NCBI RefSeq assembly: GCF_003367075.2
Contig: NZ_CP065936.1
Location: forward strand, 2,070,001-2,102,000
Source: Cylindrospermopsis raciborskii Cr2010
GTDB taxonomy: Bacteria; Cyanobacteriota; Cyanobacteriia; Cyanobacteriales; Nostocaceae
DNA length: 32,000 nt
Direction: 5' to 3'
Part shown: positions 4,326-25,690 of the stretch, one piece after another
Numbering within the stretch: the first letter of the stretch is position 1
How the letters are laid out: each line of letters starts with the position of its first letter
Made by a program: the position numbers and the translations under genes
Notes under the pieces: generated by a model
Seen by the model: the letters and a program-made list of their open reading frames with translations, nothing else
Told to the model about the DNA's origin: nothing
Databases searched by the model: none

Positions 4326-4527
4326 GAAATTTAATTGTTGAGGTTGTGGAAGTAGTACATTTTACGGTTAAGCACATCTAGTCTGAATTTTTCCGTTTAT
4401 TCTCTTCCTAATTCATAGATGCTAGCACCTACAGTAGTGAGTATACCAGCATTAATTCCCAACTAGAACCTAAACTAATTTGTGACCCCAGTAGGATAAT
4501 GCACCAAATACCAAGAAAGGTAAATGC

Positions 4528-4758
4528 TCATAATTGAAGCATAAAAAGCATTTGAGACTCTCTAGCTGTGCGGGTTTTTTCAAATTCCGTCTCGCTAGTA
4601 TATAGAAACCGCTCGGCAAAATTAAACCAGCGATTTAATTGTGTGATTATCCATTCTCTAATGGATGCTAAAGCCAAATACAAAGCTAAAGACCATAAAC
4701 AAGAACCAGCGATGGCTACTTTATCTATCGTGAATTGAAAAGGTAATATATCAAGCAT
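4528..4758 (-). CDS. Hypothetical small membrane protein, possibly itself a remnant
   Basis: This is a 76-aa ORF with one hydrophobic stretch ('VAIAGSCLWSLALYLALASI'). After its stop the same frame continues with more hydrophobic sequence ('AFTFLGIWCIILLGSQ...'), which suggests an interrupted larger gene. I recognise no family. Confidence 0.2.
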   Translation of the reverse strand: MLDILPFQFTIDKVAIAGSCLWSLALYLALASIREWIITQLNRWFNFAERFLYTSETEFEKTRTARESQMLFMLQL

Positions 4759-4843
4759 ACTAAAGATATTAAGTGATAAACTCCCATTTTACTTGAATTT
4801 GTCCTCAAATCCATATTTTATACTTAGAACTGATTATGTCATT

Positions 4844-6397
4844 ATGCCTAAACAATTTAACACTGCTGGCCCCTGCAAAGCCAACATTCACTATATGCTC
4901 TCTCCCACAGGGCGACTACCTCAGTTGAAAGCATTAATTGATGGAGAAAATTACTTTATCATTCATGCACCGCGACAAGTAGGCAAAACCACTGCTATGA
5001 TGGCCTTAGCTCAAGAATTAACTGACAGTAGGCAATACCTAGCTGTGATGTTAACCGTAGAAACCGGTGCGCCATTTCCAGATGCACCAGAACAAGCGCA
5101 ACAAAGTATCCTCAGACGTTGGCAGAATGAAATTCGGTTCCGAAAATTACCCTTGCCCACTTTAACCCAAATTCAAAGGGAGACCGAGACTTCTCCCCTA
5201 GATATTCAAACAGTCCTGCAAGGGTGGGCCATGGCTTCCCCCCTACCCTTAGTGGTCTTTCTGGATGAAATTGATTCTTTAGAGGATCAAACCCTCATAT
5301 CCATCCTTAGACAGTTGCGAGCGGGTTATCCCAATCGTCCCCAGGGTTTCCCCCATTCGGTGGGCTTAATTGGGATGCGGGACGTGCGGGACTACAAGGT
5401 TAAATCTGGTGGAAGTGAACGACTCAATACGTCTAGTCCGTTTAATATCAAGGCTGAATCCCTAACTTTAAGTAATTTTACTTTTACAGATGTCCAAAAT
5501 TTATATGAACAACATACAACAGCTACGGGACAGGTGTTTACCCCGGAAGCAGTTCAACAGGCATATTATTTAACCGATGGACAACCATGGTTAGTTAACG
5601 CCCTAGCTCGTCAAGCTACCCAGGTGTTAGTCCAGGATATGAATGAACCCATTACTGCTGAGGTGATTAACCAAGCCAAAGAAATGCTCATTCAGCGTCA
5701 GGATACCCATTTGGATAGTTTAGCAGAAAGATTACGGGAAGCGCGGGTCAAAACTATTATTGAACCAATTTTAGCAGGTGAGGACTTACCCGACGTACCA
5801 CCGGATGATATTCGTTACGTGCTGGATTTAGGTCTGTGTCGAGATCAAGGACAAGGACTGGAAATTGCCAATCCAATTTATAAAGAAGTTCTACCTTTAG
5901 TACTAAGTTATACAACTAGGGTTTCTATTGGAGCAATTGAACCTCTGTGGCTAAATGAACAAGGGGAATTATTACCCAATAAATTATTACATGCTTTTCT
6001 GGAGTTTTGGCGACAACACGGAGAACCATTGCTCAAGAGTGCGCCCTACCATGAGATTGCCCCCCATTTAGTTTTGATGGCATTTTTACACCGGGTGGTA
6101 AATGGTGGTGGTACGTTAGAACGGGAATATGCCATTGGTTCTGGGAGAATGGATATTTGTTTACGATATGGCAAGGTAGTGATGGGTATGGAACTCAAGG
6201 TGTGGCGTGAAAGAAAGTCAGATCCGTTAATCAAGGGTTTGACCCAACTGGATAAATACCTGGATGGGTTAGGATTAGATACAGGTTGGTTAGTGATTTT
6301 CGATCGCCGTCCCGGTTTACCACCCATGGGAGAGAGGATTAGTACGGAGGAGATTATTAGTCCTAATGGGCGCACCATTACCCTCATTCGTAGTTAG
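4844..6397 (+). CDS. P-loop NTPase / PD-(D/E)XK nuclease fusion protein, array copy 1 (modules K-A-X)
   Basis: The long ORF carries Walker A 'HAPRQVGKTT', Walker B 'LVVFLDEIDS' and a C-terminal 'EREYAIGSGRMDICLRYGKVVMGMELKVW' (D...E-x-K). The start is set at ATG 4844 ('MPKQFNTAGPC'), by homology with the other copies, rather than the track's TTG at 4793. Confidence 0.8.
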   Translation: MPKQFNTAGPCKANIHYMLSPTGRLPQLKALIDGENYFIIHAPRQVGKTTAMMALAQELTDSRQYLAVMLTVETGAPFPDAPEQAQQSILRRWQNEIRFRKLPLPTLTQIQRETETSPLDIQTVLQGWAMASPLPLVVFLDEIDSLEDQTLISILRQLRAGYPNRPQGFPHSVGLIGMRDVRDYKVKSGGSERLNTSSPFNIKAESLTLSNFTFTDVQNLYEQHTTATGQVFTPEAVQQAYYLTDGQPWLVNALARQATQVLVQDMNEPITAEVINQAKEMLIQRQDTHLDSLAERLREARVKTIIEPILAGEDLPDVPPDDIRYVLDLGLCRDQGQGLEIANPIYKEVLPLVLSYTTRVSIGAIEPLWLNEQGELLPNKLLHAFLEFWRQHGEPLLKSAPYHEIAPHLVLMAFLHRVVNGGGTLEREYAIGSGRMDICLRYGKVVMGMELKVWRERKSDPLIKGLTQLDKYLDGLGLDTGWLVIFDRRPGLPPMGERISTEEIISPNGRTITLIRS

Positions 6398-6455
6398 ATT
6401 CCCATAAATTTGAACCACATCTGAATCACAGTAGTACCTTAACTTATTGTCAATT

Positions 6456-8012
6456 ATGCCTAAACACTTTAATACTGCTGGACCTTGTCAATCTGATATC
6501 CACTATATGCTCTCTCCCACAGGGCGACTACCTCAGTTGAAAGCATTAATTGATGGACGCAATTACTTTATCATTCATGCACCACGACAAGTGGGCAAAA
6601 CCACTGCTATGATGGCCCTAGCTCAAGAATTAACTGACAGTGGGCAATACCTAGCTGTGATGTTAACCGTAGAAACCGGTGCGCCATTTCCAGATGCACC
6701 AGAACAAGCGCAACAAAGTATCCTCAGACGTTGGCAGAATGAAATTCGGTTCCGAAAATTACCCTTGCCCACTTTAACCCAAATTCAAAGGGAGACCGAG
6801 ACTTCTCCCCTAGATATTCAAACAGTCCTGCAAGGGTGGGCCATGGCTTCCCCCCTACCCTTAGTGGTCTTTCTGGATGAAATTGATTCTTTAGAGGATC
6901 AAACCCTCATATCCATCCTTAGACAGTTGCGAGCGGGTTATCCCAATCGTCCCCAGGGTTTCCCCCATTCGGTGGGCTTAATTGGCATGCGGGACGTGCG
7001 GGACTACAAGGTTAAATCTGGTGGGAGTGAACGACTTAATACATCTAGTCCGTTCAATATCAAGGCTGAATCCCTAACTTTAAGTAATTTTAGTTTTACA
7101 GATGTGCAAAATTTATACGAACAACATACAACAGCTACAGGGCAAGTATTTACCCTGGGAGCAGTTCAACAGGCATATTATTTAACCGATGGACAACCAT
7201 GGTTAGTTAACGCCCTAGCTCGTCAAGCTACCCAGGTGTTAGTAAAGGATGTGAAGCAACCCATTACTGCTGAGGTGATTAACCAAGCCAAGGAAATCCT
7301 CATCCAGCGTCAGGATACCCATTTAGATAGTTTGGCGGAAAGATTACGGGAAGAGCGGGTTAGGGATATTATTCAACCCATGTTAGCTGGTGAAGACTTA
7401 GCTGATACAGCAGAAGATAATTTACGATATGTCCTAGACTTGGGTTTATGTCGTCGCGATCGCGGGGGTGCATTAGAAATTGCTAACCCCATTTATCGGG
7501 AGATTTTACCTAAGACCTTAGCTGCAGTGGCGATCGCATCTCTAACTTCTGTGGAACCCAACTGGTTAAACTCTGATGGTACTCTCAATCCTCAAATTCT
7601 ATTAAACTCTTTCTTGGAATTTTGGCGACAACATGGGGAACCATTACTCAAAAGTGCGCCCTATCATGAAATTGCTCCCCATTTGGTGTTAATGGCATTT
7701 TTACACCGAGTGGTAAATGGTGGTGGTACGTTAGAGCGGGAATATGCCATTGGTTCTGGGAGAATGGATATTTGTTTACGCTATGGCAAGGTGGTGATGG
7801 GTATGGAACTCAAGGTGTGGCGTGAAAGAAAGTCAGATCCGTTAATCAAGGGTTTAACCCAACTGGATAAATATCTGGATGGGTTAGGATTAGATACGGG
7901 TTGGTTAGTGATTTTCGATCGCCGTCCCGGGTTACCCCCCATGGGAGAGAGGATTAGTACGGAGGAGGTTATTAGTCCTAGTGGGCGCACCATTACCCTG
8001 ATTCGTAGTTAG
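6456..8012 (+). CDS. P-loop NTPase / PD-(D/E)XK nuclease fusion protein, array copy 2 (modules Q-A-Y)
   Basis: Same motifs as copy 1. The start is set at ATG 6456 ('MPKHFNTAGPC'); the track starts at TTG 6447. The V2 cassette is form Y ('RDIIQPMLAGEDLADTAEDNLRYVLDLGLCRRDRGG...'). Confidence 0.8.
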   Translation: MPKHFNTAGPCQSDIHYMLSPTGRLPQLKALIDGRNYFIIHAPRQVGKTTAMMALAQELTDSGQYLAVMLTVETGAPFPDAPEQAQQSILRRWQNEIRFRKLPLPTLTQIQRETETSPLDIQTVLQGWAMASPLPLVVFLDEIDSLEDQTLISILRQLRAGYPNRPQGFPHSVGLIGMRDVRDYKVKSGGSERLNTSSPFNIKAESLTLSNFSFTDVQNLYEQHTTATGQVFTLGAVQQAYYLTDGQPWLVNALARQATQVLVKDVKQPITAEVINQAKEILIQRQDTHLDSLAERLREERVRDIIQPMLAGEDLADTAEDNLRYVLDLGLCRRDRGGALEIANPIYREILPKTLAAVAIASLTSVEPNWLNSDGTLNPQILLNSFLEFWRQHGEPLLKSAPYHEIAPHLVLMAFLHRVVNGGGTLEREYAIGSGRMDICLRYGKVVMGMELKVWRERKSDPLIKGLTQLDKYLDGLGLDTGWLVIFDRRPGLPPMGERISTEEVISPSGRTITLIRS

Positions 8013-8053
8013 ATTCCGATAAATTTGAATCACACCTTAAATTATTGCCGATT

Positions 8054-9607
8054 ATGTTTAAACACTTTAATACTGCTGGACCTTGCCAATCTGATATCCA
8101 CTATATGCTCTCTCCCACAGGGCGACTACCTCAGTTGAAAGCATTAATTGATGGACGCAATTACTTTATCATTCATGCACCGCGACAAGTGGGTAAAACC
8201 ACTGCCATGATGGCCCTAGCTCAAGAATTAACTGACAGTGGACAATACCTAGCTGTGATGTTAACCCTAGAAACCGGTGCGCCATTTCCAGATGCACCAG
8301 AACAAGCGCAACAAAGTATCCTGAGACGTTGGCAGAATGAAATTCGGTTTCGAAAATTACCTTTGCCTAATTTAACACAAATTGAAACAGAGACTGAGAC
8401 CTCTCCCTTAGATATTCAAACAGTTCTGCAAGCTTGGGCCATGGCTTCCCCTCTACCTTTAGTTGTGTTTTTGGATGAAATTGATTCTTTGGAAGATCAA
8501 ACTCTCATATCCATTCTCAGACAATTACGAGCGGGTTATCCCAATCGTCCCCAGGGTTTTCCCCATTCGGTGGGCTTAATTGGCATGCGGGATGTGCGGG
8601 ACTACAAGGTTAAATCTGGTGGAAGTGAACGACTCAATACGTCTAGTCCGTTTAATATCAAGGCTGAATCCCTAACTTTGAGTAATTTTAGTTTTACAGA
8701 TATTCAAAATTTATATGAACAACATACAACAGCTACGGGACAGGTGTTTACCCTGGGAGCAGTTCAACAGGCATATTATTTAACTGATGGACAACCATGG
8801 TTAGTTAACGCCCTAGCTCGTCAAGCTACCCAGGTATTAGTCCAGGATGTGAATCAACCCATTACTGCTGAAGTGATTAACCAAGCCAAAGAAATCCTCA
8901 TCCAGCGTCAGGATACCCATTTGGATAGTTTAGCAGAAAGATTACGGGAAGAGCGGGTCAAAGCTATTATTGAACCAATTTTAGCAGGTGAAGACTTACC
9001 CGACATACCACCAGATGATATTCGTTATGTGCTGGATTTAGGACTGTGTCGAGATCAAGGACAAGGCTTGGAAATTGCCAATCCAATTTATAAGGAAGTT
9101 CTACCTCTAGTGCTAAGTTACACAACTAGGGTTTCTATTGGAGCAATTGAACCTCTGTGGCTAAATGAACAAGGGGAACTATTACCTGATAAATTATTAC
9201 ATGCTTTTCTGGAGTTTTGGCGACAACACGGGGAACCATTACTCAAAAGTGCGCCCTACCATGAGATTGCTCCCCATTTGGTGTTGATGGCATTTTTACA
9301 TCGGGTAGTTAATGGTGGTGGTACTTTAGAGCGGGAATATGCCATTGGTTCTGGAAGAATGGATATTTGTTTACGCTATGGCAAGGTGGTAATGGGTATG
9401 GAACTCAAGGTGTGGCGTGAAAGAAAGTCAGATCCGTTAATCAAGGGTTTGACCCAACTGGATAAATACCTGGATGGGTTAGGATTAGATACGGGTTGGT
9501 TAGTGATTTTCGATCGCCGTCCCGGTTTACCACCTATGGGAGAGAGGATTAGTACGGAGGAGGTTATTAGTCCCACTGGGCGCACTATTACCCTAATTCG
9601 TAGTTAG
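8054..9607 (+). CDS. P-loop NTPase / PD-(D/E)XK nuclease fusion protein, array copy 3 (modules Q-A'-X)
   Basis: Same motifs. The start is set at ATG 8054 ('MFKHFNTAGPC'). Its V1 form A differs from the other A copies mostly at synonymous sites. Confidence 0.8.
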   Translation: MFKHFNTAGPCQSDIHYMLSPTGRLPQLKALIDGRNYFIIHAPRQVGKTTAMMALAQELTDSGQYLAVMLTLETGAPFPDAPEQAQQSILRRWQNEIRFRKLPLPNLTQIETETETSPLDIQTVLQAWAMASPLPLVVFLDEIDSLEDQTLISILRQLRAGYPNRPQGFPHSVGLIGMRDVRDYKVKSGGSERLNTSSPFNIKAESLTLSNFSFTDIQNLYEQHTTATGQVFTLGAVQQAYYLTDGQPWLVNALARQATQVLVQDVNQPITAEVINQAKEILIQRQDTHLDSLAERLREERVKAIIEPILAGEDLPDIPPDDIRYVLDLGLCRDQGQGLEIANPIYKEVLPLVLSYTTRVSIGAIEPLWLNEQGELLPDKLLHAFLEFWRQHGEPLLKSAPYHEIAPHLVLMAFLHRVVNGGGTLEREYAIGSGRMDICLRYGKVVMGMELKVWRERKSDPLIKGLTQLDKYLDGLGLDTGWLVIFDRRPGLPPMGERISTEEVISPTGRTITLIRS

Positions 9608-9670
9608 AAAAATGCGATCGCTAAGTAAAACGTAAATTATTATTTTGCTACTTATAAATTATACCTTACT

Positions 9671-11212
9671 ATGCCTAAACAATTTAACACTGCTGGACCT
9701 TGTCAATCTGATATCCACTATATGCTCTCTCCCACAGGGCGACTACCTCAGTTAAAAGCGTTAATTGATGGACGCAATTACTTTATCATTCATGCACCGC
9801 GACAAGTGGGCAAAACCACTGCTATGATAGCTTTAGCCCAAGAATTAACTGATAGTGGGGAGTATACAGCAGTGATGCTCTCCGTGGAAGTGGGGTCGGT
9901 TTTTCCTGATGAACCAGAACGTGCTGAAAGAGCCATTTTGGGTTCTTGGCAAGATGCAATTGATATTTGGCTTCCGCAAGACCTCCATCCCCCTTTTGAC
10001 CCAGAGCGTAGGGAGAATATTGGTGCTTTCCTGAAAAGTTGGGCAAAAAGCTCTCCTCGTCCCCTAGTGGTGTTCATTGATGAAATTGACTCGTTGCAAA
10101 ATCAAACGTTGATTTCAGTATTGCGACAGTTACGGGATGGTTTTCCCCGTCGTCCCCAGGGTTTTCCCCATTCGGTGGGCTTAATTGGCATGCGGGATGT
10201 GCGGGACTACAAGGTTAAATCTGGTGGAAGTGAACGACTCAATACGTCTAGTCCGTTTAATATCAAGGCTGAGTCCCTAACTTTGAGTAATTTTAGTTTT
10301 ACAGATATTCAAAATTTATATGAACAACATACAACAGCTACGGGACAGGTGTTTACCCTGGGAGCAGTTCAACAGGCATATTATTTAACTGATGGACAAC
10401 CATGGTTAGTTAACGCCCTAGCTCGTCAAGCTACCCAGGTATTAGTCCAGGATGTGAATCAACCCATTACTGCTGAGATGATTAACCAAGCCAAAGAAAT
10501 CCTCATTCAACGCCAGGATACCCATTTAGATAGCTTAGCAGAGCGATTACGGGAAGAGCGGGTTAAGACCATTATTGAACCAATTTTAGCAGGTGAGGAC
10601 TTACCCGACGTACCACCGGATGATATTCGTTACGTGCTGGATTTAGGTCTGTGTCGAGATCAAGGACAAGGACTGGAAATTGCCAATCCAATTTATAAAG
10701 AAGTTCTACCTTTAGTGCTAAGTTATACAACTAGGGTTTCTATTGGAGCAATTGAACCTCTGTGGCTAAATGAACAAGGGGAACTATTACCTGATAAATT
10801 ATTACATGCTTTTCTGGAGTTTTGGCGACAACACGGAGAACCATTGCTCAAAAGTGCGCCCTACCATGAGATTGCTCCCCATTTAGTTTTGATGGCATTT
10901 TTACACCGGGTGGTAAATGGTGGTGGTACGTTAGAACGGGAATATGCCATTGGTTCTGGGAGAATGGATATTTGTTTACGCTATGGCAAGGTGGTGATGG
11001 GTATGGAACTCAAGCTGTGGCGTGAAAGAAAGTCGGATCCTTTAATTAAGGGTTTAACCCAACTGGATAAATATCTAGATGGGTTAGGATTAGATACGGG
11101 TTGGTTAGTGATTTTCGATCGCCGTCCTGGTTTACCACCCATGGGAGAGAGGATTAGTACGGAGAAGGTTATTAGTCCTAGGGGACGCACCATTACCCTC
11201 ATTCGTAGTTAG
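9671..11212 (+). CDS. P-loop NTPase / PD-(D/E)XK nuclease fusion protein, array copy 4 (modules Q-B-X)
   Basis: Same scaffold. V1 is form B ('LSVEVGSVFPDEPERAERAILGSWQDAIDIWLPQDLHPPFDPERRENIGAFLKSWAKSSPRP'), which is 4 codons shorter than form A. Confidence 0.8.
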   Translation: MPKQFNTAGPCQSDIHYMLSPTGRLPQLKALIDGRNYFIIHAPRQVGKTTAMIALAQELTDSGEYTAVMLSVEVGSVFPDEPERAERAILGSWQDAIDIWLPQDLHPPFDPERRENIGAFLKSWAKSSPRPLVVFIDEIDSLQNQTLISVLRQLRDGFPRRPQGFPHSVGLIGMRDVRDYKVKSGGSERLNTSSPFNIKAESLTLSNFSFTDIQNLYEQHTTATGQVFTLGAVQQAYYLTDGQPWLVNALARQATQVLVQDVNQPITAEMINQAKEILIQRQDTHLDSLAERLREERVKTIIEPILAGEDLPDVPPDDIRYVLDLGLCRDQGQGLEIANPIYKEVLPLVLSYTTRVSIGAIEPLWLNEQGELLPDKLLHAFLEFWRQHGEPLLKSAPYHEIAPHLVLMAFLHRVVNGGGTLEREYAIGSGRMDICLRYGKVVMGMELKLWRERKSDPLIKGLTQLDKYLDGLGLDTGWLVIFDRRPGLPPMGERISTEKVISPRGRTITLIRS

Positions 11213-11275
11213 AAAAATGCGATCGCTAAGTAAAACGTACTTTATTATTTTGATGATTATAAATTATACTTTATC

Positions 11276-12832
11276 ATGGCTAAACAATTTAACACTGCTG
11301 GTCCGTGCAAAGCCAACATTCACTATATGCTTTCTCCCACAGGGCGACTACCTCAGTTGAAAGCATTAATTGATGGAGAAAATTACTTTATCATTCATGC
11401 ACCGCGACAAGTAGGCAAAACCACTGCTATGATGGCCCTAGCTCAAGAATTAACTGACAGTGGGCAATACCTAGCTGTGATGTTAACCGTAGAAACCGGT
11501 GCGCCATTTCCAGATGCACCAGAACAAGCGCAACAAAGTATCCTCAGACGTTGGCAGAATGAAATTCGGTTCCGAAAATTACCCTTGCCCACTTTAACCC
11601 AGATTCAAAGGGAGACCGAGACTTCTCCCCTAGATATTCAAACAGTCCTACAAGGGTGGGCCATGGCTTCCCCCCTACCCTTAGTTGTCTTTCTGGATGA
11701 AATTGATTCCTTAGAGGATCAAACCCTCATATCCATCCTTAGACAGTTGCGAGCGGGTTATCCCAATCGTCCCCAGGGTTTCCCCCATTCGGTGGGCTTA
11801 ATTGGGATGCGGGACGTGCGGGACTACAAGGTTAAATCTGGTGGAAGTGAACGACTCAATACGTCTAGTCCGTTTAATATCAAGGCTGAATCCCTAACTT
11901 TAAGTAATTTTAGTTTTACAGATGTCCAAAATCTATATGAACAACATACAACAGCTACGGGACAGGTGTTTACCCCGGAAGCAGTTCAACAGGCATATTA
12001 TTTAACCGATGGACAACCATGGCTAGTTAACGCCCTAGCTCGTCAAGCTACCCAGGTGTTAGTCCAGGATGTGAATGAACCCATTACTGCTGAGGTGATT
12101 AACCAAGCCAAAGAAATCCTCATTCAGCGTCAGGATACCCATTTGGATAGTTTAGCAGAAAGATTACGGGAAGAGCGGGTCAAAGCTATTATTGAACCAA
12201 TTTTAGCAGGTGAGGACTTACCAGATACCCCAGAGGATGATCGCCGGTTTTTGCTAGATTTAGGCTTAGTTAAGCGTAGTCCTTTGGGTGGACTAACCAT
12301 TGCCAATCCCATTTACCAGGAGGTGATCCCTCGTGTTTTATCCCAGGGTAGTCAGGACAGTTTACCTCAAATTCAACCCACTTGGTTAAATACTGACAAT
12401 AGTTTAAATCCCCAAGCTCTATTAAATGCTTTTCTGGAATTTTGGCGACAACATGGGGAACCATTACTCAGAAGTGCGCCCTACCATGAGATTGCTCCCC
12501 ATTTGGTATTAATGGCATTTTTACACCGGGTGGTAAATGGTGGTGGTACATTAGAACGGGAATATGCCATTGGTTCTGGGAGAATGGATATTTGTTTACG
12601 ATATGGCAAGGTGGTGATGGGTATGGAACTCAAGGTGTGGCGTGAAAGAAAGTCAGATCCGTTAATCAAGGGTTTGACCCAACTGGATAAATATCTAGAT
12701 GGGTTAGGATTAGATACGGGTTGGTTAGTGATTTTCGATCGCCGTCCTGGTTTACCACCCATGGGAGAGAGGATTAGTACGGAGAAGGTTATTAGTCCTA
12801 GGGGACGCACCATTACCCTCATTCGTAGTTAG
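11276..12832 (+). CDS. P-loop NTPase / PD-(D/E)XK nuclease fusion protein, array copy 5 (modules K-A-Z)
   Basis: Same scaffold. V2 is form Z ('TPEDDRRFLLDLGLVKRSPLGGLTIANPIYQEVIPRVLSQGSQDSLPQIQPTWLNTDNSLNPQALLNAF'). Confidence 0.8.
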   Translation: MAKQFNTAGPCKANIHYMLSPTGRLPQLKALIDGENYFIIHAPRQVGKTTAMMALAQELTDSGQYLAVMLTVETGAPFPDAPEQAQQSILRRWQNEIRFRKLPLPTLTQIQRETETSPLDIQTVLQGWAMASPLPLVVFLDEIDSLEDQTLISILRQLRAGYPNRPQGFPHSVGLIGMRDVRDYKVKSGGSERLNTSSPFNIKAESLTLSNFSFTDVQNLYEQHTTATGQVFTPEAVQQAYYLTDGQPWLVNALARQATQVLVQDVNEPITAEVINQAKEILIQRQDTHLDSLAERLREERVKAIIEPILAGEDLPDTPEDDRRFLLDLGLVKRSPLGGLTIANPIYQEVIPRVLSQGSQDSLPQIQPTWLNTDNSLNPQALLNAFLEFWRQHGEPLLRSAPYHEIAPHLVLMAFLHRVVNGGGTLEREYAIGSGRMDICLRYGKVVMGMELKVWRERKSDPLIKGLTQLDKYLDGLGLDTGWLVIFDRRPGLPPMGERISTEKVISPRGRTITLIRS

Positions 12833-12895
12833 AAAAATGCGATCGCTAAGTAAAACGTACTTTATTATTTTGATGATTATAAATTATACTTTATC

Positions 12896-14449
12896 ATGGC
12901 TAAACAATTTAACACTGCTGGTCCGTGCAAAGCCAACATTCACTATATGCTTTCTCCCACAGGGCGACTACCTCAGTTGAAAGCATTAATTGATGGAGAA
13001 AATTACTTTATCATTCATGCACCGCGACAAGTAGGCAAAACCACTGCTATGATGGCCCTAGCTCAAGAATTAACTGACAGTGGGCAATACCTAGCTGTGA
13101 TGTTAACCGTAGAAACCGGTGCGCCATTTCCAGATGCACCAGAACAAGCGCAACAAAGTATCCTCAGACGTTGGCAGAATGAAATTCGGTTCCGAAAATT
13201 ACCCTTGCCCACTTTAACCCAGATTCAAAGGGAGACCGAGACTTCTCCCCTAGATATTCAAACAGTCCTACAAGGGTGGGCCATGGCTTCCCCCCTACCC
13301 TTAGTTGTCTTTCTGGATGAAATTGATTCCTTAGAGGATCAAACCCTCATATCCATCCTTAGACAGTTGCGAGCGGGTTATCCCAATCGTCCCCAGGGTT
13401 TCCCCCATTCGGTGGGCTTAATTGGGATGCGGGACGTGCGGGACTACAAGGTTAAATCTGGTGGGAGTGAACGACTTAATACGTCTAGTCCGTTTAATAT
13501 CAAGGCTGAATCCCTAACTTTAAGTAATTTTAGTTTTACAGATGTCCAAAATCTATATGAACAACATACAACAGCTACGGGACAGGTGTTTACCCCGGAA
13601 GCAGTTCAACAGGCATATTATTTAACTGATGGACAACCATGGTTAGTTAACGCCCTAGCTCGTCAAGCTACCCAGGTGTTAGTCCAGGATGTGAATGAAC
13701 CCATTACTGCTGAAGTGATTAACCAAGCAAAAGAAATTCTCATTCAGCGTCAGGATACCCATTTGGATAGTTTAGCAGAAAGATTACGGGAAGCACGGGT
13801 TAGGGATATTATTCAACCCATGTTAGCTGGTGAAGACTTAGCTGATACAGCAGAAGATAATTTACGATATGTCCTAGACTTGGGTTTATGTCGTCGCGAT
13901 CGCGGGGGTGGACTAGAAATTGCTAACCCCATTTATCGGGAGATTTTACCTAAGACCTTAGCTGCAGTGGCGATCGCATCTCTAACTTCTGTAGAACCCA
14001 ACTGGTTAAACTCTGATGGTACTCAATCCTCAAATCCTCTTAAACTCTTTCTTGGAATTTTGGCGACAACATGGGGAACCATTACTTAAAAGTGCGCCCT
14101 ATCATGAGATTGCCCCCATTTGGTGTTAATGGCATTTTTACACCGGGTAGTAAATGGTGGTGGTACGTTAGAGCGGGAATATGCCATTGGTTCTGGGAGA
14201 ATGGATATTTGTTTACGCTATAGCAAGGTGGTGATGGGTATAGAAATTAAGATGTGGCGTGAAAGAAAGTCAGATCCTTTAATTAAGGGTTTGACCCAAC
14301 TGGATAAATACCTGGATGGGTTAGGATTAGATACAGGTTGGTTAGTGATTTTCGATCGCCGTCCTGGTTTACCACCTATGGGAGAGAGGATTAGTACGGA
14401 GGAGGTTATTAGTCCTAGGGGACGCACTATTACCCTCATTCGTAGTTAG
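12896..14449 (+). pseudogene. P-loop NTPase / PD-(D/E)XK nuclease fusion, array copy 6 (modules K-A-Y), disrupted by two compensating frameshifts
   Basis: Compared with copy 7 there is a 2-bp deletion ('actctcaatcc' becomes 'actcaatcc', about 14024) and a 1-bp deletion in a C-run (C6 becomes C5, about 14113-14117). The frame is restored after about 90 nt, but the shifted segment contains TAA at 14087-14089. This splits the gene into the track ORFs 12896-14089 and 14120-14449, which share one frame. Confidence 0.75.
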
Positions 14450-14507
14450 ATTCCCATAAATTTGAACCACATTTGAATCACAGTAGTACCTTAACTTATT
14501 GTCAATT

Positions 14508-16052
14508 ATGCCTAAACACTTTAATACTGCTGGACCTTGTCAATCTGATATCCACTATATGCTCTCTCCCACAGGGCGACTACCTCAGTTGAAAGCATTA
14601 ATTGATGGACGTAATTACTTTATCATTCATGCACCGCGACAAGTGGGCAAAACCACTGCTATGATAGCTTTAGCCCAGGAATTAACTGATAGTGGGGAGT
14701 ATACAGCAGTGATGCTCTCCGTGGAAGTGGGGTCGGTTTTTCCTGATGAACCAGAACGTGCTGAAAGGGCTATTTTGGGTTCTTGGCAAGATGCAATTGA
14801 TATTTGGCTTCCGGAAGACCTCCATCCCCCTTTTGACCCGGAGCGTAGGGAGACTATTGGTGCTTTCCTGAAAAGTTGGGCAAAAAGCTCTCCTCGTCCT
14901 CTAGTGGTCTTCATTGATGAAATTGACTCATTGCAAAATCAAACCTTGATTTCGGTATTGCGACAGTTACGGGATGGTTTTCCCCGTCGTCCTCGGGGTT
15001 TCCCCCATTCGGTGGGCTTAATTGGGATGCGGGACGTGCGGGACTACAAGGTTAAATCTGGTGGGAGTGAACGACTTAATACGTCTAGTCCGTTTAATAT
15101 CAAGGCTGAATCCCTAACTTTAAGTAATTTTAGTTTTACAGATGTCCAAAATCTATATGAACAACATACAACAGCTACGGGACAGGTGTTTACCCCGGAA
15201 GCAGTTCAACAGGCATATTATTTAACTGATGGACAACCATGGTTAGTTAACGCCCTAGCTCGTCAAGCTACCCAGGTGTTAGTCCAGGATGTGAATGAAC
15301 CCATTACTGCTGAAGTGATTAACCAAGCAAAAGAAATTCTCATTCAGCGTCAGGATACCCATTTGGATAGTTTAGCAGAAAGATTACGGGAAGCACGGGT
15401 TAGGGATATTATTCAACCCATGTTAGCTGGTGAAGACTTAGCTGATACAGCAGAAGATAATTTACGATATGTCCTAGACTTGGGTTTATGTCGTCGCGAT
15501 CGCGGGGGTGGACTAGAAATTGCTAACCCTATTTATCGGGAGATTTTACCTAAGACCTTAGCTGCAGTGGCGATCGCATCTCTAACTTCTGTAGAACCCA
15601 ACTGGTTAAACTCTGATGGTACTCTCAATCCTCAAATTCTCTTAAACTCTTTCTTGGAATTTTGGCGACAACATGGGGAACCATTACTTAAAAGTGCGCC
15701 CTATCATGAGATTGCCCCCCATTTGGTGTTAATGGCATTTTTACACCGGGTAGTAAATGGTGGTGGTACGTTAGAGCGGGAATATGCCATTGGTTCTGGG
15801 AGAATGGATATTTGTTTACGCTATAGCAAGGTGGTGATGGGTATAGAAATTAAGATGTGGCGTGAAAGAAAGTCAGATCCGCTAATTAAGGGTTTGACCC
15901 AACTGGATAAATACCTGGATGGGTTAGGATTAGATACAGGTTGGTTAGTGATTTTCGATCGCCGTCCTGGGTTACCACCTATGGGAGAGAGGATTAGTAC
16001 GGAGGAGGTTATTAGTCCTAGGGGACGCACTATTACCCTCATTCGTAGTTAG
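14508..16052 (+). CDS. P-loop NTPase / PD-(D/E)XK nuclease fusion protein, array copy 7 (modules Q-B-Y)
   Basis: Same scaffold, with the start at ATG 14508. The nuclease motif variant 'RYSKVVMGIEIKMW' still keeps the E-x-K residues. Confidence 0.8.
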   Translation: MPKHFNTAGPCQSDIHYMLSPTGRLPQLKALIDGRNYFIIHAPRQVGKTTAMIALAQELTDSGEYTAVMLSVEVGSVFPDEPERAERAILGSWQDAIDIWLPEDLHPPFDPERRETIGAFLKSWAKSSPRPLVVFIDEIDSLQNQTLISVLRQLRDGFPRRPRGFPHSVGLIGMRDVRDYKVKSGGSERLNTSSPFNIKAESLTLSNFSFTDVQNLYEQHTTATGQVFTPEAVQQAYYLTDGQPWLVNALARQATQVLVQDVNEPITAEVINQAKEILIQRQDTHLDSLAERLREARVRDIIQPMLAGEDLADTAEDNLRYVLDLGLCRRDRGGGLEIANPIYREILPKTLAAVAIASLTSVEPNWLNSDGTLNPQILLNSFLEFWRQHGEPLLKSAPYHEIAPHLVLMAFLHRVVNGGGTLEREYAIGSGRMDICLRYSKVVMGIEIKMWRERKSDPLIKGLTQLDKYLDGLGLDTGWLVIFDRRPGLPPMGERISTEEVISPRGRTITLIRS

Positions 16053-16110
16053 ATTCCCATAAATTTGAACCACATTTGAATCACAGTAGTACCTTAACTT
16101 ATTGTCAATT

Positions 16111-17646
16111 ATGCCTAAACACTTTAATACTGCTGGACCTTGTCAATCTGATATCCACTATATGCTCTCTCCCACAGGGCGACTACCTCAGTTGAAAGCA
16201 TTAATTGATGGACGTAATTACTTTATCATTCATGCACCGCGACAAGTGGGCAAAACCACTGCTATGATAGCTTTAGCCCAGGAATTAACTGATAGTGGGG
16301 AGTATACAGCAGTGATGCTCTCCGTGGAAGTGGGGTCGGTTTTTCCTGATGAACCAGAACGTGCTGAAAGGGCTATTTTGGGTTCTTGGCAAGATGCAAT
16401 TGATATTTGGCTTCCGGAAGACCTCCATCCCCCTTTTGACCCGGAGCGTAGGGACACTATTGGTGCTTTCCTGAAAAGTTGGGCAAAAAGCTCTCCTCGT
16501 CCTCTAGTGGTCTTCATTGATGAAATTGACTCATTGCAAAATCAAACCTTGATTTCGGTATTGCGACAGTTACGGGATGGTTTTCCCCGTCGTCCTCGGG
16601 GTTTCCCCCATTCGGTGGGCTTAATTGGGATGCGGGACTACAAGGTTAAATCTGGTGGAAGTGAACGACTCAATACGTCTAGTCCGTTTAATATCAAGGC
16701 TGAATCCCTAACTTTAAGTAATTTTAGTTTTACAGATGTCCAAAATCTATATGAACAACATACAACAGCTACGGGACAGGTGTTTACCCCGGAAGCAGTT
16801 CAACAGGCATATTATTTAACCGATGGACAACCATGGTTAGTTAACGCCCTAGCTCGTCAAGCTACCCAGGTGTTAGTCCAGGATGTGAATGAACCCATTA
16901 CTGCTGAGGTGATTAACCAAGCCAAAGAAATTCTCATCCAGCGTCAGGATACCCATTTGGATAGTTTAGCAGAAAGATTACGGGAAGAGCGGGTCAAAGC
17001 TATTATTGAACCAATTTTAGCAGGTGAGGACTTACCAGATACCCCAGAGGATGATCGCCGGTTTTTGCTAGATTTAGGCTTAGTTAAGCGTAGTCCTTTG
17101 GGTGGACTAACCATTGCCAATCCCATCTACCAGGAGGTGATTCCTCGTGTTTTATCCCAGGGTAGTCAGGACAGTTTACCTCAAATTCAACCCACTTGGT
17201 TAAATACTGACAATAGTTTAAATCCCCAAGCTCTATTAAATGCTTTTCTGGAATTTTGGCGACAACACGGGGAACCATTACTCAGAAGTGCGCCCTATCA
17301 TGAGATTGCTCCCCATTTGGTATTGATGGCATTTTTGCATCGGGTAGTTAATGGTGGTGGTACGTTAGAGCGGGAATATGCCATTGGTTCTGGGAGAATG
17401 GATATTTGTTTACGCTATGGCAAGGTGGTGATGGGTATGGAACTAAAGGTGTGGCGTGAAAGAAAGTCAGATCCGCTAATCAAGGGTTTGACCCAACTGG
17501 ATAAATACCTAGATGGGTTAGGATTACATACTGGTTGGTTAGTGATTTTCGATCGCCGTCCCGGATTACCACCCATGGGAGAGAGGATTAGTACGGAGGA
17601 GGTTATTAGTCCTAGTGAGCGCACCATTATCCTCATTCGTAGTTAG
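16111..17646 (+). CDS. P-loop NTPase / PD-(D/E)XK nuclease fusion protein, array copy 8 (modules Q-B-Z), with a 3-codon in-frame deletion
   Basis: Same scaffold, with the start at ATG 16111. 'GMRDVRDYKV' becomes 'GMRDYKV' through a 9-bp loss between the direct repeats GCGGGAC...GCGGGAC (about 16631). Confidence 0.75.
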   Translation: MPKHFNTAGPCQSDIHYMLSPTGRLPQLKALIDGRNYFIIHAPRQVGKTTAMIALAQELTDSGEYTAVMLSVEVGSVFPDEPERAERAILGSWQDAIDIWLPEDLHPPFDPERRDTIGAFLKSWAKSSPRPLVVFIDEIDSLQNQTLISVLRQLRDGFPRRPRGFPHSVGLIGMRDYKVKSGGSERLNTSSPFNIKAESLTLSNFSFTDVQNLYEQHTTATGQVFTPEAVQQAYYLTDGQPWLVNALARQATQVLVQDVNEPITAEVINQAKEILIQRQDTHLDSLAERLREERVKAIIEPILAGEDLPDTPEDDRRFLLDLGLVKRSPLGGLTIANPIYQEVIPRVLSQGSQDSLPQIQPTWLNTDNSLNPQALLNAFLEFWRQHGEPLLRSAPYHEIAPHLVLMAFLHRVVNGGGTLEREYAIGSGRMDICLRYGKVVMGMELKVWRERKSDPLIKGLTQLDKYLDGLGLHTGWLVIFDRRPGLPPMGERISTEEVISPSERTIILIRS

Positions 17647-17711
17647 ATTCCCATAAATTTGAACCACACCTTAAATTATTGCCGATTATGCCCAAACACT
17701 TTAACATTTAG
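17647..17711 (+). pseudogene. Truncated ninth array unit: spacer plus the first 7 codons ('MPKHFNI*')
   Basis: 17647-17687 matches the spacer that follows copy 2. The ATG at 17688 is followed by 'cccaaacactttaaca', which matches the gene 5' end. Homology then stops and a TAG follows at 17709-17711. Confidence 0.8.
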
Positions 17712-17724
17712 GGTTATTTAATTT

Positions 17725-17754
17725 AAAAAACTCCCCATCCTAGACGGTGGGGAG
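17725..17754 (-). terminator. Rho-independent terminator downstream of the GH15 gene
   Basis: On the minus strand the sequence reads CTCCCCA-(10-nt loop)-TGGGGAG followed by TTTTTT. It lies 60 nt after the stop at 17815. Confidence 0.7.
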
Positions 17755-17814
17755 TATGAAGGAGACTGTTAATTTTTAGATCGGTAAAAATCTAAATGAT
17801 CACAAAGAGTGGAA

Positions 17815-20388
17815 TTATAACTTATCGACTTGTGAAACTTCCCCACTTACAGGAGTTTGTAAACTGTGTTTTTCAGCTTCTTCCCAGATAGTTTTACCAT
17901 TGGCATCAACTTTGACAAACTTGTACTCAAAGCTAGTAGACGCAGGTAAGGAGACCTTAACGCTCCAGGTAGGATAACTAACCGCAGAGAGCTTAACACC
18001 GGAAGTGGGTTCCCAATTGCCTAGTAAGGGACTATTGCCAACCAAATACACATTCTCACCTGGTTTTGTGGTTGCATTTTTAGCGGTGAAAGTCACATCA
18101 GTTTGGGGTTTGTCACAAGCGTAGCGTTGACAAACTACATCCGGAGCATCACTCTTACCATCTTTAACGGCTACAATCAGGTTAATATATTCACCCATAG
18201 CCCAGCTAAGAGGACGTATAGAGCGTGTGGAAGTGCCAGGAAGATGAGATGCGGGAGTAATTGTTTCCCAACCTGTAATGGTAGTGCTGTTATTCCAAAC
18301 TTGCTCAGGAATAAATCCTGCTTCTGAAGACATGACTTTCAGATCTTTCAGATATTTTTGACCAGCACACCCATTACCAGATTTAGCAATTTCGTAAATC
18401 CCACGTTCAGCGGTGAAAATTGGCCACAGACGACCACGACCACTAGTATCAAAATTACGGTCGTCATTGTATTCACCATAGCCATCGTAGTTATACCGGA
18501 ACCAAGCTTCCGCTTCTACACCATCCTTAGAAATGGTTTGTTTCAAAATTTCATCATATTCAGGAATGGTTTCTAGAATTGTCCAGTCGTTGGCACTCAT
18601 CACCCCTAAACGTACCAACTCTAAAAAGCCACCATCAATGATGTAGCGCTGATCATGTGTTCCACCACCATTACCATAGGTCAGTTGCACACCATCATTG
18701 GGATTTTTATCGCTGGTGATTCTTACATAATACTGTTTATTACCATGATAACCAGTAGTTGTAAATGTCCAATTGGCAACGTTATTACGCCACTCATCGG
18801 CTTTTTTGAGATAATACTCAGCCGCACCTGGATCATTGGATTTTTTAGCCAAGTCAGCTGCACAGACTAATCCTGCAATTTCAGCAGCAATGGTGGAAGG
18901 TGAATAACCACGCATTTCTTCCCAGCGTTCTTGCTGAGTATAGGGTCCATATTTGGCTAAATATTCAGCTGCTAACTTAATTTTAGGCCACAAATCCGTG
19001 CGGTTAAGTTTCCAAGCCAAGATGATGGGCATTCCAGTTTGGTCCATCTGGGTGCCATTCCAGTATATCCTACCATCTACATAGTTATTTTGTGGAAAAC
19101 GACCAGGACGAGAATAGGGATCATCACTGGTAGTAGTCTGCATCTGAACATTGAAGAAATAGTCAACAGCTTCATTAGCTGACTCTGTATCACCAGCAGC
19201 AATCAAAGAACTAGCAAATTTGAACAAGTCACGGGGCCAAACCAGGTGGTAACCACCTTGATTTTTATCAGTGTTAGTTTCTCCCCAAGGTGTAGCAGGT
19301 CCTGCTACCATCGCACCATTACTCTTGTCTTGAATACTCTTCAGATTCATTGCTGCTAGGTAGTACTGGTCATCAGCCAATCCATTTTGATCACTGAGTT
19401 TAGCAGTATAAGCTACCCATTCTTTGGTGTAATCATTTTCTACCGCAGCCAAATCACTATTTAGAGTAGCATTTGCTACATTCATGGCAGCTTGCTCACT
19501 GTTACCAAATGCCAGTGCCACGTCAAAAGAAATCTTGGTATCAGTGGTATTGCCAAAATCTACCCAGCCAATTTGAGCAACGTTTCCACCAACAGCATTA
19601 TCATAATGCCAGTCCATGGTTTTATCGCCTGCTCCAACAAAAAGGTCTGTATAGCCATCGTTTTGAGCCACAAACCCATTAGACACCATTAAAGTGCCAC
19701 CAACGGTCTTCCAAGGTAGGGAAGTAGTGACAGCTGAAGAGGTAGAATTAGGCTCGGAAGCGGCTAAAAAGGTTCGACCATTGGATGACAGAGTGCGAGA
19801 GTTATCTCCACCCGTTGCTTGTGGTCCACTACAAGTATTAGCAGCACTACCACTACCCGAATTGTTGATAGATGGATTATTCAGCAGGTAGAGGTTATAG
19901 TCTTGGACTGTCTTTCCTGGTTCAAGAGTAGCGAAAGTAACTCTTTCAATTACAGTAGGACGATTGGGATCACTAAAAAATCTCTTAGTAATTTTCCAAC
20001 GTTTGTCTTTATCTGTAGTTGTTACTTCCCACACCATGGAGCGTTTATTAACCTGAGTAACTTTATGGTCTTGCTTGCGCTCTTCGTCACCCCAGGTTCT
20101 TTTGGCATCGGTGACTAAAAATTGCAAGTCAACATTTTGCACGTTATCCACAGTGGGATAAAACACCTCTGTTAAAATACCTTCTCCACCAGTGAAATAA
20201 ACATTGGATTTTTTGCCGGCTGAAGTACCCACAAAATCCTTGACTGAGGTTGCCCACAAGGAGGAAGCTCCAGGTGCACAAGGTGCATTTTCCGCTAAAA
20301 CAATTCCAGGATCTAGAAATACTGAACCTAGAGATACACAGGCAAAAACAAGTGATGCCAGTAAAATTGATAACTTTGACTTTCGCAT
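17815..20388 (-). CDS. Secreted GH15 glucoamylase/glucodextranase with a C-terminal CBM20 starch-binding domain
   Basis: 'GGYHLVWPRDLFKFASSLIAAGD' and the overall layout fit a bacterial GH15 enzyme with a glucodextranase-type N-domain. The C-terminus 'PGENVYLVGNSPLLGNWEPTSGVKLS...YPTWSVKVSLPASTSFEYKFVKVDANGKTIWE' is CBM20-like. The start is set at ATG 20388 ('MRKSKLSILLASLVFACVSLG', signal-peptide-like). The track ORF extends to a GTG at 20436. Confidence 0.85.
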   Translation of the reverse strand: MRKSKLSILLASLVFACVSLGSVFLDPGIVLAENAPCAPGASSLWATSVKDFVGTSAGKKSNVYFTGGEGILTEVFYPTVDNVQNVDLQFLVTDAKRTWGDEERKQDHKVTQVNKRSMVWEVTTTDKDKRWKITKRFFSDPNRPTVIERVTFATLEPGKTVQDYNLYLLNNPSINNSGSGSAANTCSGPQATGGDNSRTLSSNGRTFLAASEPNSTSSAVTTSLPWKTVGGTLMVSNGFVAQNDGYTDLFVGAGDKTMDWHYDNAVGGNVAQIGWVDFGNTTDTKISFDVALAFGNSEQAAMNVANATLNSDLAAVENDYTKEWVAYTAKLSDQNGLADDQYYLAAMNLKSIQDKSNGAMVAGPATPWGETNTDKNQGGYHLVWPRDLFKFASSLIAAGDTESANEAVDYFFNVQMQTTTSDDPYSRPGRFPQNNYVDGRIYWNGTQMDQTGMPIILAWKLNRTDLWPKIKLAAEYLAKYGPYTQQERWEEMRGYSPSTIAAEIAGLVCAADLAKKSNDPGAAEYYLKKADEWRNNVANWTFTTTGYHGNKQYYVRITSDKNPNDGVQLTYGNGGGTHDQRYIIDGGFLELVRLGVMSANDWTILETIPEYDEILKQTISKDGVEAEAWFRYNYDGYGEYNDDRNFDTSGRGRLWPIFTAERGIYEIAKSGNGCAGQKYLKDLKVMSSEAGFIPEQVWNNSTTITGWETITPASHLPGTSTRSIRPLSWAMGEYINLIVAVKDGKSDAPDVVCQRYACDKPQTDVTFTAKNATTKPGENVYLVGNSPLLGNWEPTSGVKLSAVSYPTWSVKVSLPASTSFEYKFVKVDANGKTIWEEAEKHSLQTPVSGEVSQVDKL

Positions 20389-20600
20389 AAGGTTGAAAAC
20401 AAGGAGAACACTTAACTCATCAATTGTCATCGGCACAAGTAATAGTCGTATTAAATACTAACTATTATTAATATCACATTAGTAGATAGTAAATTAAAAA
20501 CTCAAAATCTACTTATGTTGATTGCTCCACTACCCACCCTCCACCCTCAAACTGTTGTAATGTCATGATTTTAACATAGTTATTTTGGCATCATTGTTGG

Positions 20601-22013: not shown

Positions 22014-22055
22014 GGTTTGTTCTTTTTCGTAGATGTTAGTTGATTTACTCTGAGA

Positions 22056-22073
22056 GAGGACCCTAGGGTCCTC
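22056..22073. repeat. Perfect 18-bp palindrome GAGGACCCTAGGGTCCTC between the oxidase and DyP genes
   Basis: Read directly from the sequence. It lies in the 76-nt gap between the stop at 22090 and the start at 22013. Confidence 0.9.
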
Positions 22074-22089
22074 CTGTGCTGATTGTCAC

Positions 22090-24066: not shown

Positions 24067-24075
24067 TATTTTTGA

Positions 24076-25101: not shown

Positions 25102-25198
25102 ATATTATCTACTCACAAAAATTTAGTTGGGTTGGTAAGTCTAATGAAGGAGTATTTTGGGGTTTAAAATCCTAGCCTGGGGTTATCAACTAACTTAA

Positions 25199-25597: not shown

Positions 25598-25690
25598 AAT
25601 TCTATTCCTGATTCCTGGTTATGTGAGAGTAGAACTAGATTAGTTTCTACTCCCCACTCAAAAACTTGTTGAATAACCTAAAAGGAAAAA

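Follow-up and report, generated by a model that had tools for sequence, protein, structure and literature searches.

A tandem array of CyrO-like genes in Cylindrospermopsis raciborskii Cr2010: mosaic structure and its probable origin by recombination between misaligned copies

INTRODUCTION

In type I restriction-modification systems, recombination in the conserved central region of the HsdS subunit re-pairs the first target recognition domain (TRD1) with the second (TRD2). Clusters of nucleotide-binding leucine-rich repeat (NLR) genes, the R genes of plants, and other tandem families evolve by unequal crossover and gene conversion. Here, we describe a tandem array of CyrO-like genes in the bloom-forming cyanobacterium Cylindrospermopsis raciborskii Cr2010, in which two variable segments of the gene, V1 and V2, occur in changing combinations on a common backbone. 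The array lies in a stretch of 32,000 nt (contig NZ_CP065936.1, positions 2,070,001 to 2,102,000), which we refer to as the window and within which all positions are counted. It very probably evolves by homologous recombination between misaligned copies, whereby V1 is re-paired with V2.

Recombination among tandem paralogues is a textbook process. What is new at this locus is that the V types, as judged from sequence, are older than the genus and sit on a homogenized backbone, and that V1/V2 swapping recurs in distant genera. CyrO itself was described as a putative regulator encoded in the cylindrospermopsin (cyr) cluster, dispensable for toxin production and with weak similarity to AAA and WD proteins; the G+C content of cyrO is above that of its flanks, and its transfer has been suggested in C. 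raciborskii (PMC3922686). Our literature searches (CyrO, AAA_35, and tandem copies in C. raciborskii) returned no description of the array, the mosaic, or the probable C-terminal nuclease, and an eLife paper on conflict systems does not cover the CyrO-like family. The two-cassette combinatorial layout appears to be undescribed in the literature searched.

RESULTS

Structure of the array

Eight CyrO-like gene units form a direct tandem array at 4844..17706 (+), with a period of 1594 to 1620 nt (repeat finding returned eight copies). According to the open reading frame (ORF) list, all eight genes are about 1.6 kb long and full length and lie on the + strand in one direct orientation; the intergenic spacers measure 41 to 63 nt. 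The products belong to the CyrO-like family, matching C. raciborskii proteins at E = 0 with 80 to 91% identity and 100% coverage, and databases label those relatives "ATP-binding protein" or "polyketide biosynthesis operon protein CyrO."

Two segments of the gene come in discrete types. V1, at approximately nt 150 to 500 of the gene, is of type A in c1, c2, c3, c5, and c6 and of type B in c4, c7, and c8, and the two types differ in 38% of their nucleotides. V2, at approximately nt 900 to 1260, is of type X in c1, c3, and c4, type Y in c2, c6, and c7, and type Z in c5 and c8; these types differ by 30 to 34%. As an example, c5 carries V1 at 11425..11775 (+; about codons 50 to 167), the conserved core at 11776..12174 (+), and V2 at 12175..12535 (+; about codons 300 to 420). 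From left to right, the + strand encodes c1 (4844..6397; type A-X, 517 aa), c2 (6456..8012; A-Y, 518 aa), c3 (8054..9607; A-X with slightly diverged sub-variants of both A and X, 517 aa), c4 (9671..11212; B-X, 513 aa), c5 (11276..12832; A-Z, 518 aa), c6 (12896..14449; A-Y, with the frame broken at 14021 and 14112), c7 (14508..16052; B-Y, 514 aa), and c8 (16111..17646; B-Z, 511 aa, with a 9-nt deletion). The order AX AY AX BX AZ AY BY BZ contains every one of the six combinations of V1 with V2. On the right, the array ends in a truncated ninth unit at 17647..17706 (+), whose 60 nt consist of an S1-type spacer in a 41-nt variant and the first 19 nt of the ORF (ATGCCCAAACACTTTAACA).

The last four genes, c5 to c8 (A-Z, A-Y, B-Y, and B-Z), make up a complete two-by-two set of two 5' halves and two 3' halves. 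Over the 5' 548 alignment columns, c5 and c6 have 0 mismatches and c7 and c8 have 1, compared to 184 when one pair is set against the other; c5 and c6 are identical over their first 569 nt. In V2, the partners are exchanged: c5 and c8, like c6 and c7, differ by 5 mismatches, with about 106 between the pairs. A first-pass annotation of this DNA had read c6, c7, and c8 as A-Y, B-Y, and B-Z, correctly so. It had also described the segment between the cassettes as an invariant core of about 400 nt. Conserved it is, since the mean pairwise difference is 4.6% in the core versus 23 to 25% in V1 and V2, making the core five times less diverged, and its protein sequence is nearly invariant except for a 3-codon deletion in c8. 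Invariant it is not at the DNA level, where 52 of 401 columns vary and the longest run common to all eight copies is 34 nt.

Out-of-register identity tracts and the origin of c7

Two tracts of near-perfect identity are out of register with the gene boundaries, and self-alignment reproduced these staggered blocks as they had been proposed. The first, at 11057..11844 (+; c4 3' tail, spacer, and c5 5' part) and again at 12677..13464 (+; c5 3' tail, spacer, and c6 5' part), is 788 nt long with 0 mismatches at an offset of 1620. It begins 156 nt before the end of one gene (c4 or c5), crosses the spacer of 63 nt, and covers the first 569 nt of the gene that follows (c5 or c6); it is maximal, being bounded by mismatches at both ends (11056 and 11845). 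Beyond it, near-identity with 7 mismatches reaches about 12173, so that the tract sits in a shared block of approximately 1.1 kb with its left end in the 3' tail and its right end at the start of V2. Since the V2 cassettes of c4 and c5 differ, this block is not a whole-unit duplication; it requires gene conversion or more than one event.

The second tract corresponds to exactly one period of the array. The match suggested between about 13401-15000 and 15001-16630 proved to pair 13396..15035 (+; core, V2-Y, and tail of c6, the spacer, and the 5' end of c7 with V1-B) with 14996..16638 (+; core, V2-Y, and tail of c7, the spacer, and the 5' end of c8 with V1-B). In an alignment of 1643 columns, the two copies of this duplicated unit have 6 mismatches and 2 gaps totaling 3 nt, an identity of 99.45%. 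Two losses in c6, of 2 nt at 14021 and of 1 nt at 14112, move the offset from 1600 to 1602 and then to 1603.

Reading across the duplicate, c7 is chimeric, its 5' part resembling c8 and its 3' part resembling c6. It matches c8 up to 15027 or 15064 and c6 from 14996 on. The last site distinguishing c7 from c6 is 14995 and the first substitution between c7 and c8 is 15065, which confines the exchange that created c7 to 14996..15064 (+); counting the 9-nt indel of c8 as informative moves the right end to 15027, and the width is accordingly 32 to 69 nt. The switch point lies in the first 30 to 70 nt of the conserved core. A one-period duplicate with its junction at the start of the core is what unequal exchange would produce if an A-Y gene recombined with a neighboring B-Z gene, as had been argued for the chimeric B-Y gene. 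The accompanying idea that the core is the recombination substrate holds for the c7 switch but is too narrow for the array as a whole: exchanges were also placed at the core/V2 and V2/3'-tail edges, within the 3' tail, and in the initial 140 nt, and the left end of the 788-nt tract falls in the 3' tail and not in the core.

Formal tests agreed with the table of pairwise differences that the copies are mosaics. The pairwise homoplasy index (PHI) statistic was 0.116, compared to 0.630 +/- 0.0065 in 2000 permutations (p < 0.0005), and the minimum number of recombination events (Rmin) across the array copies was 42. Neighbor-joining trees of five segments were strongly incongruent, with groupings that conflict at 100% bootstrap: the V1 tree united {c4,c7,c8}, the V2 tree {c2,c6,c7}, {c5,c8}, and {c1,c3,c4}, and the tree of the 5' end {c2,c7,c8} and {c5,c6}, each at 100%. 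When every copy was painted by the other seven under a copying model, switches fell at gene positions of about 138, at 498 to 548 (five of the eight copies), at 656, at 809 to 919, at 1240 to 1350, and at 1408. The intervals 498 to 548, 809 to 919, and 1240 to 1350 correspond to the V1/core, core/V2, and V2/tail edges, respectively, and 1408 lies in the tail.

Arrays at the same locus in other genomes

At the corresponding locus (L081) of the complete genome CP091284.1, all eight genes recur in unchanged order, with the same junctions and 0 to 3 differences per kb outside one patch. An unrelated metagenome contig (L082) matches 7044-11805, from c2 to c5, over 4762 nt without gaps at 99.83% identity. 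CP091284.1 and a JGI metagenome contig each encode a protein identical to that of c4. Arrays of related strains differ in length. At the same locus, JBPFSD010000001 and CP073250 have nine copies (AX BX AY AX AZ AZ AY BY BZ), and C. curvispora has seven (AY AX BX AZ BZ AZ BX); G7 has at least eight, and R. curvata NIES-932 has two, at another locus. Because copy number differs between related genomes (nine, eight, and seven), unequal exchange happens at this locus. All 50 of 50 genes from seven arrays fall into the two V1 and three V2 types, with a divergence of 2 to 3% or 1 to 4% within a type and 30 to 38% between types. Copy number and order change while the cassettes persist.

The AZ AY BY BZ block is also found in JBPFSD010000001, CP073250, and G7. 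As it is common to eight- and nine-copy arrays, the exchange that made c7 predates these strains. Within strains, the two copies of the one-period duplicate are 98.0 to 99.5% identical, and orthologues in CP091284.1 and JBPFSD010000001 are about 1.3% divergent, which is compatible with, and no proof of, continued homogenization.

The one patch that departs from CP091284.1 lies in the core of c7, at 15095..15395 (+). At 25 sites, c7 of the window equals its own c6, whereas c7 of CP091284.1 equals its own c2; the flanks are identical, and three other strains have the state of the window. This segment is a candidate for a recent gene-conversion tract of about 300 nt.

Age of the cassettes and recurrence in other genera

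Between types, synonymous divergence (dS) is 1.0 to 2.4, so that synonymous sites are saturated, and the ratio of nonsynonymous to synonymous divergence (dN/dS) is 0.13 to 0.31; in the core, the proportion of synonymous differences (pS) is 0.08 to 0.31. V1 is 72 to 76% identical to proteins outside the array, compared to 41 to 42% to the other type within it, and V2 is 84 to 93% identical to outside proteins, compared to 56 to 60% to the other types within. The nearer outside relatives of the V types include other genera, such as Prochlorothrix. The backbone (residues 141-299) behaves in the opposite way: copies in the array share 91 to 98% identity, and outside proteins reach at most 87%. Family-wide, variability peaks at residues 81-140 and 301-380. 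These comparisons indicate that the V types are older than the genus and that the backbone has been homogenized within the array by concerted evolution.

Tandem pairs or triplets of family members were found in Pseudanabaena, Prochloron, Phormidium tenue, Spirulina, and a Desulfobacteraceae metagenome-assembled genome (MAG). In most of these arrays, the copies differ in V1 or V2 (about 55% amino acid identity), with the remainder 92 to 100% identical. Copy 3 of Pseudanabaena minima combines V1 of copy 1 (96.8% nucleotide identity) with V2 and the tail of copy 2 (96.9% and 100%, respectively), and V swaps of the same kind are seen in Prochloron, Phormidium, and the Desulfobacteraceae MAG. The same swaps in independent arrays argue that modular exchange is recurrent in the CyrO-like family.

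Family members are also carried by plasmids: in the records H1-H9 (Pseudanabaena sp. ABRG5-3 and P. galeata CCNP1313), a family member with 64 to 69% amino acid identity is present on each of several large plasmids from one strain. The CyrO-like family thus belongs to the mobile or accessory gene pool. A search of a phage collection and of IMG/VR found no relatives.

Domain organization of the CyrO-like proteins

The Walker A (GKT) and Walker B (DEID) motifs are invariant in 69 sequences. Pfam matches to the array proteins were limited to weak ones to AAA_16, AAA_35, and AAA_22, with AAA_16 scoring 33.6 bits for c4 (cut-off, 32.6) and 27.7 for c5. An AlphaFold model (predicted local distance difference test score [pLDDT], 75.6) was matched by Foldseek to 2qen, 2fna, and 2qby with a probability of 1.00 and E values of 3e-9 to 1e-8, at TM-scores of 0.48 to 0.63 on the target and 13 to 14% sequence identity; RuvB and RFC were matched as well. 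The first 370 or so residues are thus predicted to form the core, lid, and winged helix of an AAA+ ATPase. Profile searches of PDB sequences with the whole protein and with the C-terminal domain found no relative.

Both cassettes map to defined parts of this model. V1 is modeled as a helical insertion, with three helices compared to one in a plain AAA+ core, that lies after the strand following Walker A and before the Walker B strand. This place would correspond to the one where initiator-type (Orc1/Cdc6-type) ATPases carry a DNA-contacting insertion. V2 would comprise the third helix and wing of the winged helix together with a low-confidence linker to the C-terminal domain.

In the last 120 or so residues, E427 (in GxxExxY), D438, and E451-x-K453 are invariant or nearly so. 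A separate model of this domain (pLDDT, 79) gave no Foldseek match at an E value of 0.001 or below; the weak matches, several of which are PD-(D/E)XK enzymes, include Hjc, RecU, PaqCI, EndA, and DdmD. The domain is a probable PD-(D/E)XK nuclease, although this assignment is not established. NCBIfam and PADLOC scans of three copies returned nothing usable. Clustering of the flanking ORFs at 54 loci revealed no conserved partner gene; the recurrent clusters were only antisense ORFs inside the gene and ubiquitous histidine-kinase/response-regulator domains.

Individual copies and surroundings of the array

Two types of spacer separate the genes. One, the type found after c8, also precedes c2, c3, c7, and c8, and the other precedes c4, c5, and c6. 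The latter contains GCGATCGC (at 9614-9621, 11219-11226, and 12839-12846), which we take to be the cyanobacterial HIP1 palindrome and which is absent from the former. A promoter and terminator scan of the spacers found fewer sites than in shuffled sequence and was uninformative on operon structure. Rfam and tRNA scans of the window were empty.

In c6, (CT)2 is shortened to CT at 14021 (2 nt lost) and C6 to C5 at 14112 (1 nt lost). Jointly, the two losses bring translation back into frame 91 nt later, though not before a stop codon at 14087-14089. The counterpart in CP091284.1 is intact (518 aa), and the source record has no protein accession between c5 and c7. The frameshifts may reflect either a real slippage pseudogene or sequencing error. 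In c8, 9 nt (codons VRD) near 16631 have been lost between two GCGGGAC direct repeats, a loss also found in CP091284.1, whose c8 counterpart differs from that of the window in one codon, at 16454. The V2 cassette of c8 is nearly that of c5. ORFs of 113 aa run antisense inside the 3' parts of c1 (6046-6387, minus strand) and c5 (12481-12822, minus strand), and similar ones recur within family members at other loci; a Pfam scan of the ORF at 6046-6387 gave no match. These ORFs are probably a by-product of codon usage rather than genes.

The array is situated between a fatty-acid desaturase region and a gene for a glycoside hydrolase family 15 (GH15) glucodextranase; besides the latter, the flanking ORFs encode a dye-decolorizing (DyP) peroxidase and galactose-oxidase-like, TIM-barrel, pentapeptide, ferritin-like, and glucose-methanol-choline (GMC) oxidoreductase proteins. 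To the left, positions 1-4550 differ from CP091284.1 at 349 places or, per kb, by about 25 substitutions and 45 indel bases; homopolymers do not account for all of the indels, and C<->T changes number 76 versus 10 for A<->G. Of the genes that CP091284.1 has in this stretch, namely, those for an HSP70-like protein, two hypothetical proteins, and a fatty-acid desaturase and an ORF of 127 aa, none is unbroken here, and no ORF exceeds 83 aa. From about 4550 on, the two sequences are almost identical. Positions 1-4550 most likely represent a stretch of low assembly quality.

To the right, 12.8 kb (18513-31290, from most of the GH15 glucodextranase gene to the GMC oxidoreductase gene) are missing in CP073250, where an IS1 transposase gene lies at the junction. 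The segment is also missing in JBPFSD010000001 and C. curvispora, in which a rhomboid gene follows the array. Thus, the array adjoins a strain-variable segment. An inversion with the array at its breakpoint, suggested by a DyP gene upstream in CP073250, was considered and rejected: that gene is unlike the DyP gene of the window, and the difference is a deletion.

Several short contigs of Chrysosporum bergii ANA360D, a member of another genus (L044, L054, and others; 0.6 to 1.1 kb), are 97 to 98.5% identical in nucleotides to the V2-Y and V2-Z segments. They point to an array collapsed by short-read assembly, and the degree of identity suggests that bloom-forming Nostocales have either exchanged this DNA recently or diverged unusually slowly.

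DISCUSSION

Probable recombination between misaligned copies and its alternatives

Homologous recombination between misaligned copies would act on this array in two ways, unequal crossover altering the copy number and gene conversion leaving it unchanged. The substrates would be the conserved stretches, namely, the first 140 or so nt, the 400-nt core, the 300-nt 3' tail, and the spacers, and exchanges within them would re-associate V1 with V2. An unequal exchange between A-Y and B-Z neighbors would yield, as the gain product, AY-BY-BZ. The recombination is presumably of the RecA type, and multiple chromosome copies per cell may have a role in it.

Mis-joined repeats could in principle have produced chimeras and staggered tracts that do not exist in the cell. 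Assembly quality is indeed uneven, as the 349 differences, mostly indels, in the first 4550 nt demonstrate, and short-read assemblies of relatives, such as the Chrysosporum bergii contigs, shatter at the array. However, the gene order and junctions are identical in CP091284.1, the metagenome contig runs through c2 to c5, and the AZ AY BY BZ block recurs in three further assemblies; an assembly artefact is very unlikely, being close to refuted by these independent assemblies. Programmed diversification, by a site-specific recombinase acting on an hsdS-like shufflon or by a diversity-generating retroelement, is hardly credible either. Two cassettes around a conserved center formally resemble the TRD1-core-TRD2 arrangement of HsdS, but 4000-18500 contains no inverted repeats of 25 nt or more, all copies are direct and full length, and no recombinase or reverse-transcriptase ORF lies within the 32-kb window. 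Nor are the cassettes freshly mutated: they are two or three discrete, old types with saturated dS. General homologous recombination is the economical explanation, since inverted repeats, a recombinase, and a reverse transcriptase are not present in the stretches scanned.

Gene conversion alone, with a fixed set of copies between which patches are copied and no part for unequal crossover in the mosaic, would explain the 25-site patch of c7 with its identical flanks, as well as the block of about 1.1 kb common to c4/c5 and c5/c6, which is shorter than one unit. It is nevertheless improbable as the whole explanation, for it accounts neither for seven, eight, or nine copies at the same locus nor for the truncated ninth unit at the array edge, and the c6/c7 and c7/c8 segments duplicate exactly one period with a single junction, as a crossover predicts. 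Most of the mosaic could be ascribed to import, if horizontally transferred V types had arrived repeatedly instead of being exchanged among resident copies. The V types are nearer to genes of other genera than to each other, the Chrysosporum bergii contigs closely match V2-Y and V2-Z, relatives reside on plasmids of Pseudanabaena and other cyanobacteria, and the G+C content of cyrO has been read as a sign of transfer (PMC3922686). Yet import fails to explain why whole 5' halves of neighbors are identical to within 0 or 1 mismatch, why one period is duplicated, and why the same five cassette types are re-sorted among strains. We consider it rather unlikely as the source of the mosaic; horizontal import may be the origin of the V types, not of their shuffling.

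Several observations weigh against our interpretation or limit its reach. By our own calculation, eight draws from six equally likely pairings would cover all six with a chance of about 11%; the full set of pairings is not significant alone, and we dropped it as evidence (chance probability, about 0.11). Crossover and gene conversion are not separable for old events. The c7 patch, the sole event that looks recent, could be a repeat-polishing artefact in one of two very similar assemblies, and, given the poor stretch at 1-4550, minor differences, the frameshifts of c6 among them, may be erroneous. As regards function, the C-terminal matches to NucS_C (E = 0.004) and PDDEXK_9 (E = 0.018) are both below the Pfam cut-offs, the only PADLOC-DB v2 match was to mad8 (E = 0.006 to 0.007), with no stretch passing on its own, and the adaptive part of the explanation, which concerns specificity, is unproven.

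Possible function and significance

As to why old cassettes persist, the reading that we prefer, though tentatively, is that selection keeps them diverse because V1 and V2 would set recognition. Three observations underlie it: where the cassettes lie in the model, how old they are, and how the swaps recur. Going further, CyrO-like proteins might constitute a single-protein system of nucleic-acid recognition and cleavage, with an ATPase/winged-helix part and a nuclease part, a specificity set by the cassettes, and arrays that serve as a selected combinatorial library (2 x 3 = 6 pairings); this is a possibility that we hold to be doubtful at present. If V1 and V2 do set target specificity, the array would be a new bacterial way to hold a combinatorial recognition repertoire. 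With its members re-sorted by recombination in the homogenized backbone, such a library would be a bacterial counterpart of NLR-cluster evolution or of TRD shuffling in HsdS, extending from cyanobacteria to Desulfobacteraceae.

Even apart from function, the locus is an unusually clean bacterial case, with discrete and ancient cassettes at two positions, every pairing, and a homogenized backbone. The recurrence in distant genera suggests that the modular layout is a property of the family and not the accident of one genome. CyrO, which the literature treats as a possible regulator of cylindrospermopsin, is thereby re-framed as a member of a large, plasmid-borne, array-forming ATPase family whose members probably carry a nuclease domain and are here unconnected with toxin genes. 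As the array breaks short-read assemblies, varies in copy number, and adjoins a variable 12.8-kb segment, comparative genomics of Cylindrospermopsis can use it as a marker and can also be misled by it.

Comparison with known systems

The array genes belong to the same family as CyrO of the cyr cluster, with database relatives at about 80% identity, but they are not part of such a cluster: there are eight tandem copies at another locus, and the window contains no cyr, polyketide synthase (PKS), or nonribosomal peptide synthetase (NRPS) genes. Up to about residue 370, the predicted fold is that of the archaeal ATPases PAB2304 (2qen) and SSO1545 (2fna) and of DNA-bound Orc1/Cdc6 (2qby). None of these has the further domain of about 120 residues, marked by the motifs GxxExxY, D, and ExK, that is found at the C terminus of the array proteins.

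In its mode of evolution, the locus is a tandem family under concerted evolution, having direct repeats, incongruent segments, copy-number polymorphism, and a backbone closer within the array than outside it. It shares with NLR clusters the tandem ATPase genes, the polymorphism in copy number, the chimeric paralogues, the homogenized backbone, and the old variable segments. It differs in its bacterial host and in an ATPase that is Orc1/Cdc6- or archaeal-ATPase-like by fold instead of NB-ARC; its variable parts are predicted to be an ATPase insertion and the wing of a winged helix instead of leucine-rich repeats, and an immune role is without a PADLOC match.

The comparison with HsdS is closer in layout than in kind. 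The array proteins are not HsdS; at this locus, hsdM and hsdR neighbors, inverted repeats of 25 nt or more, and a recombinase are all lacking, and scans of the window found no HsdS, methylase, or recombinase domains of the kind that an hsdS-type shufflon contains. Whereas HsdS loci have one expressed gene and silent cassettes, the copies in the array are all complete and direct. What the two have in common is a pair of variable modules around a conserved center that serves as a recombination substrate, from which new pairings of old modules arise.

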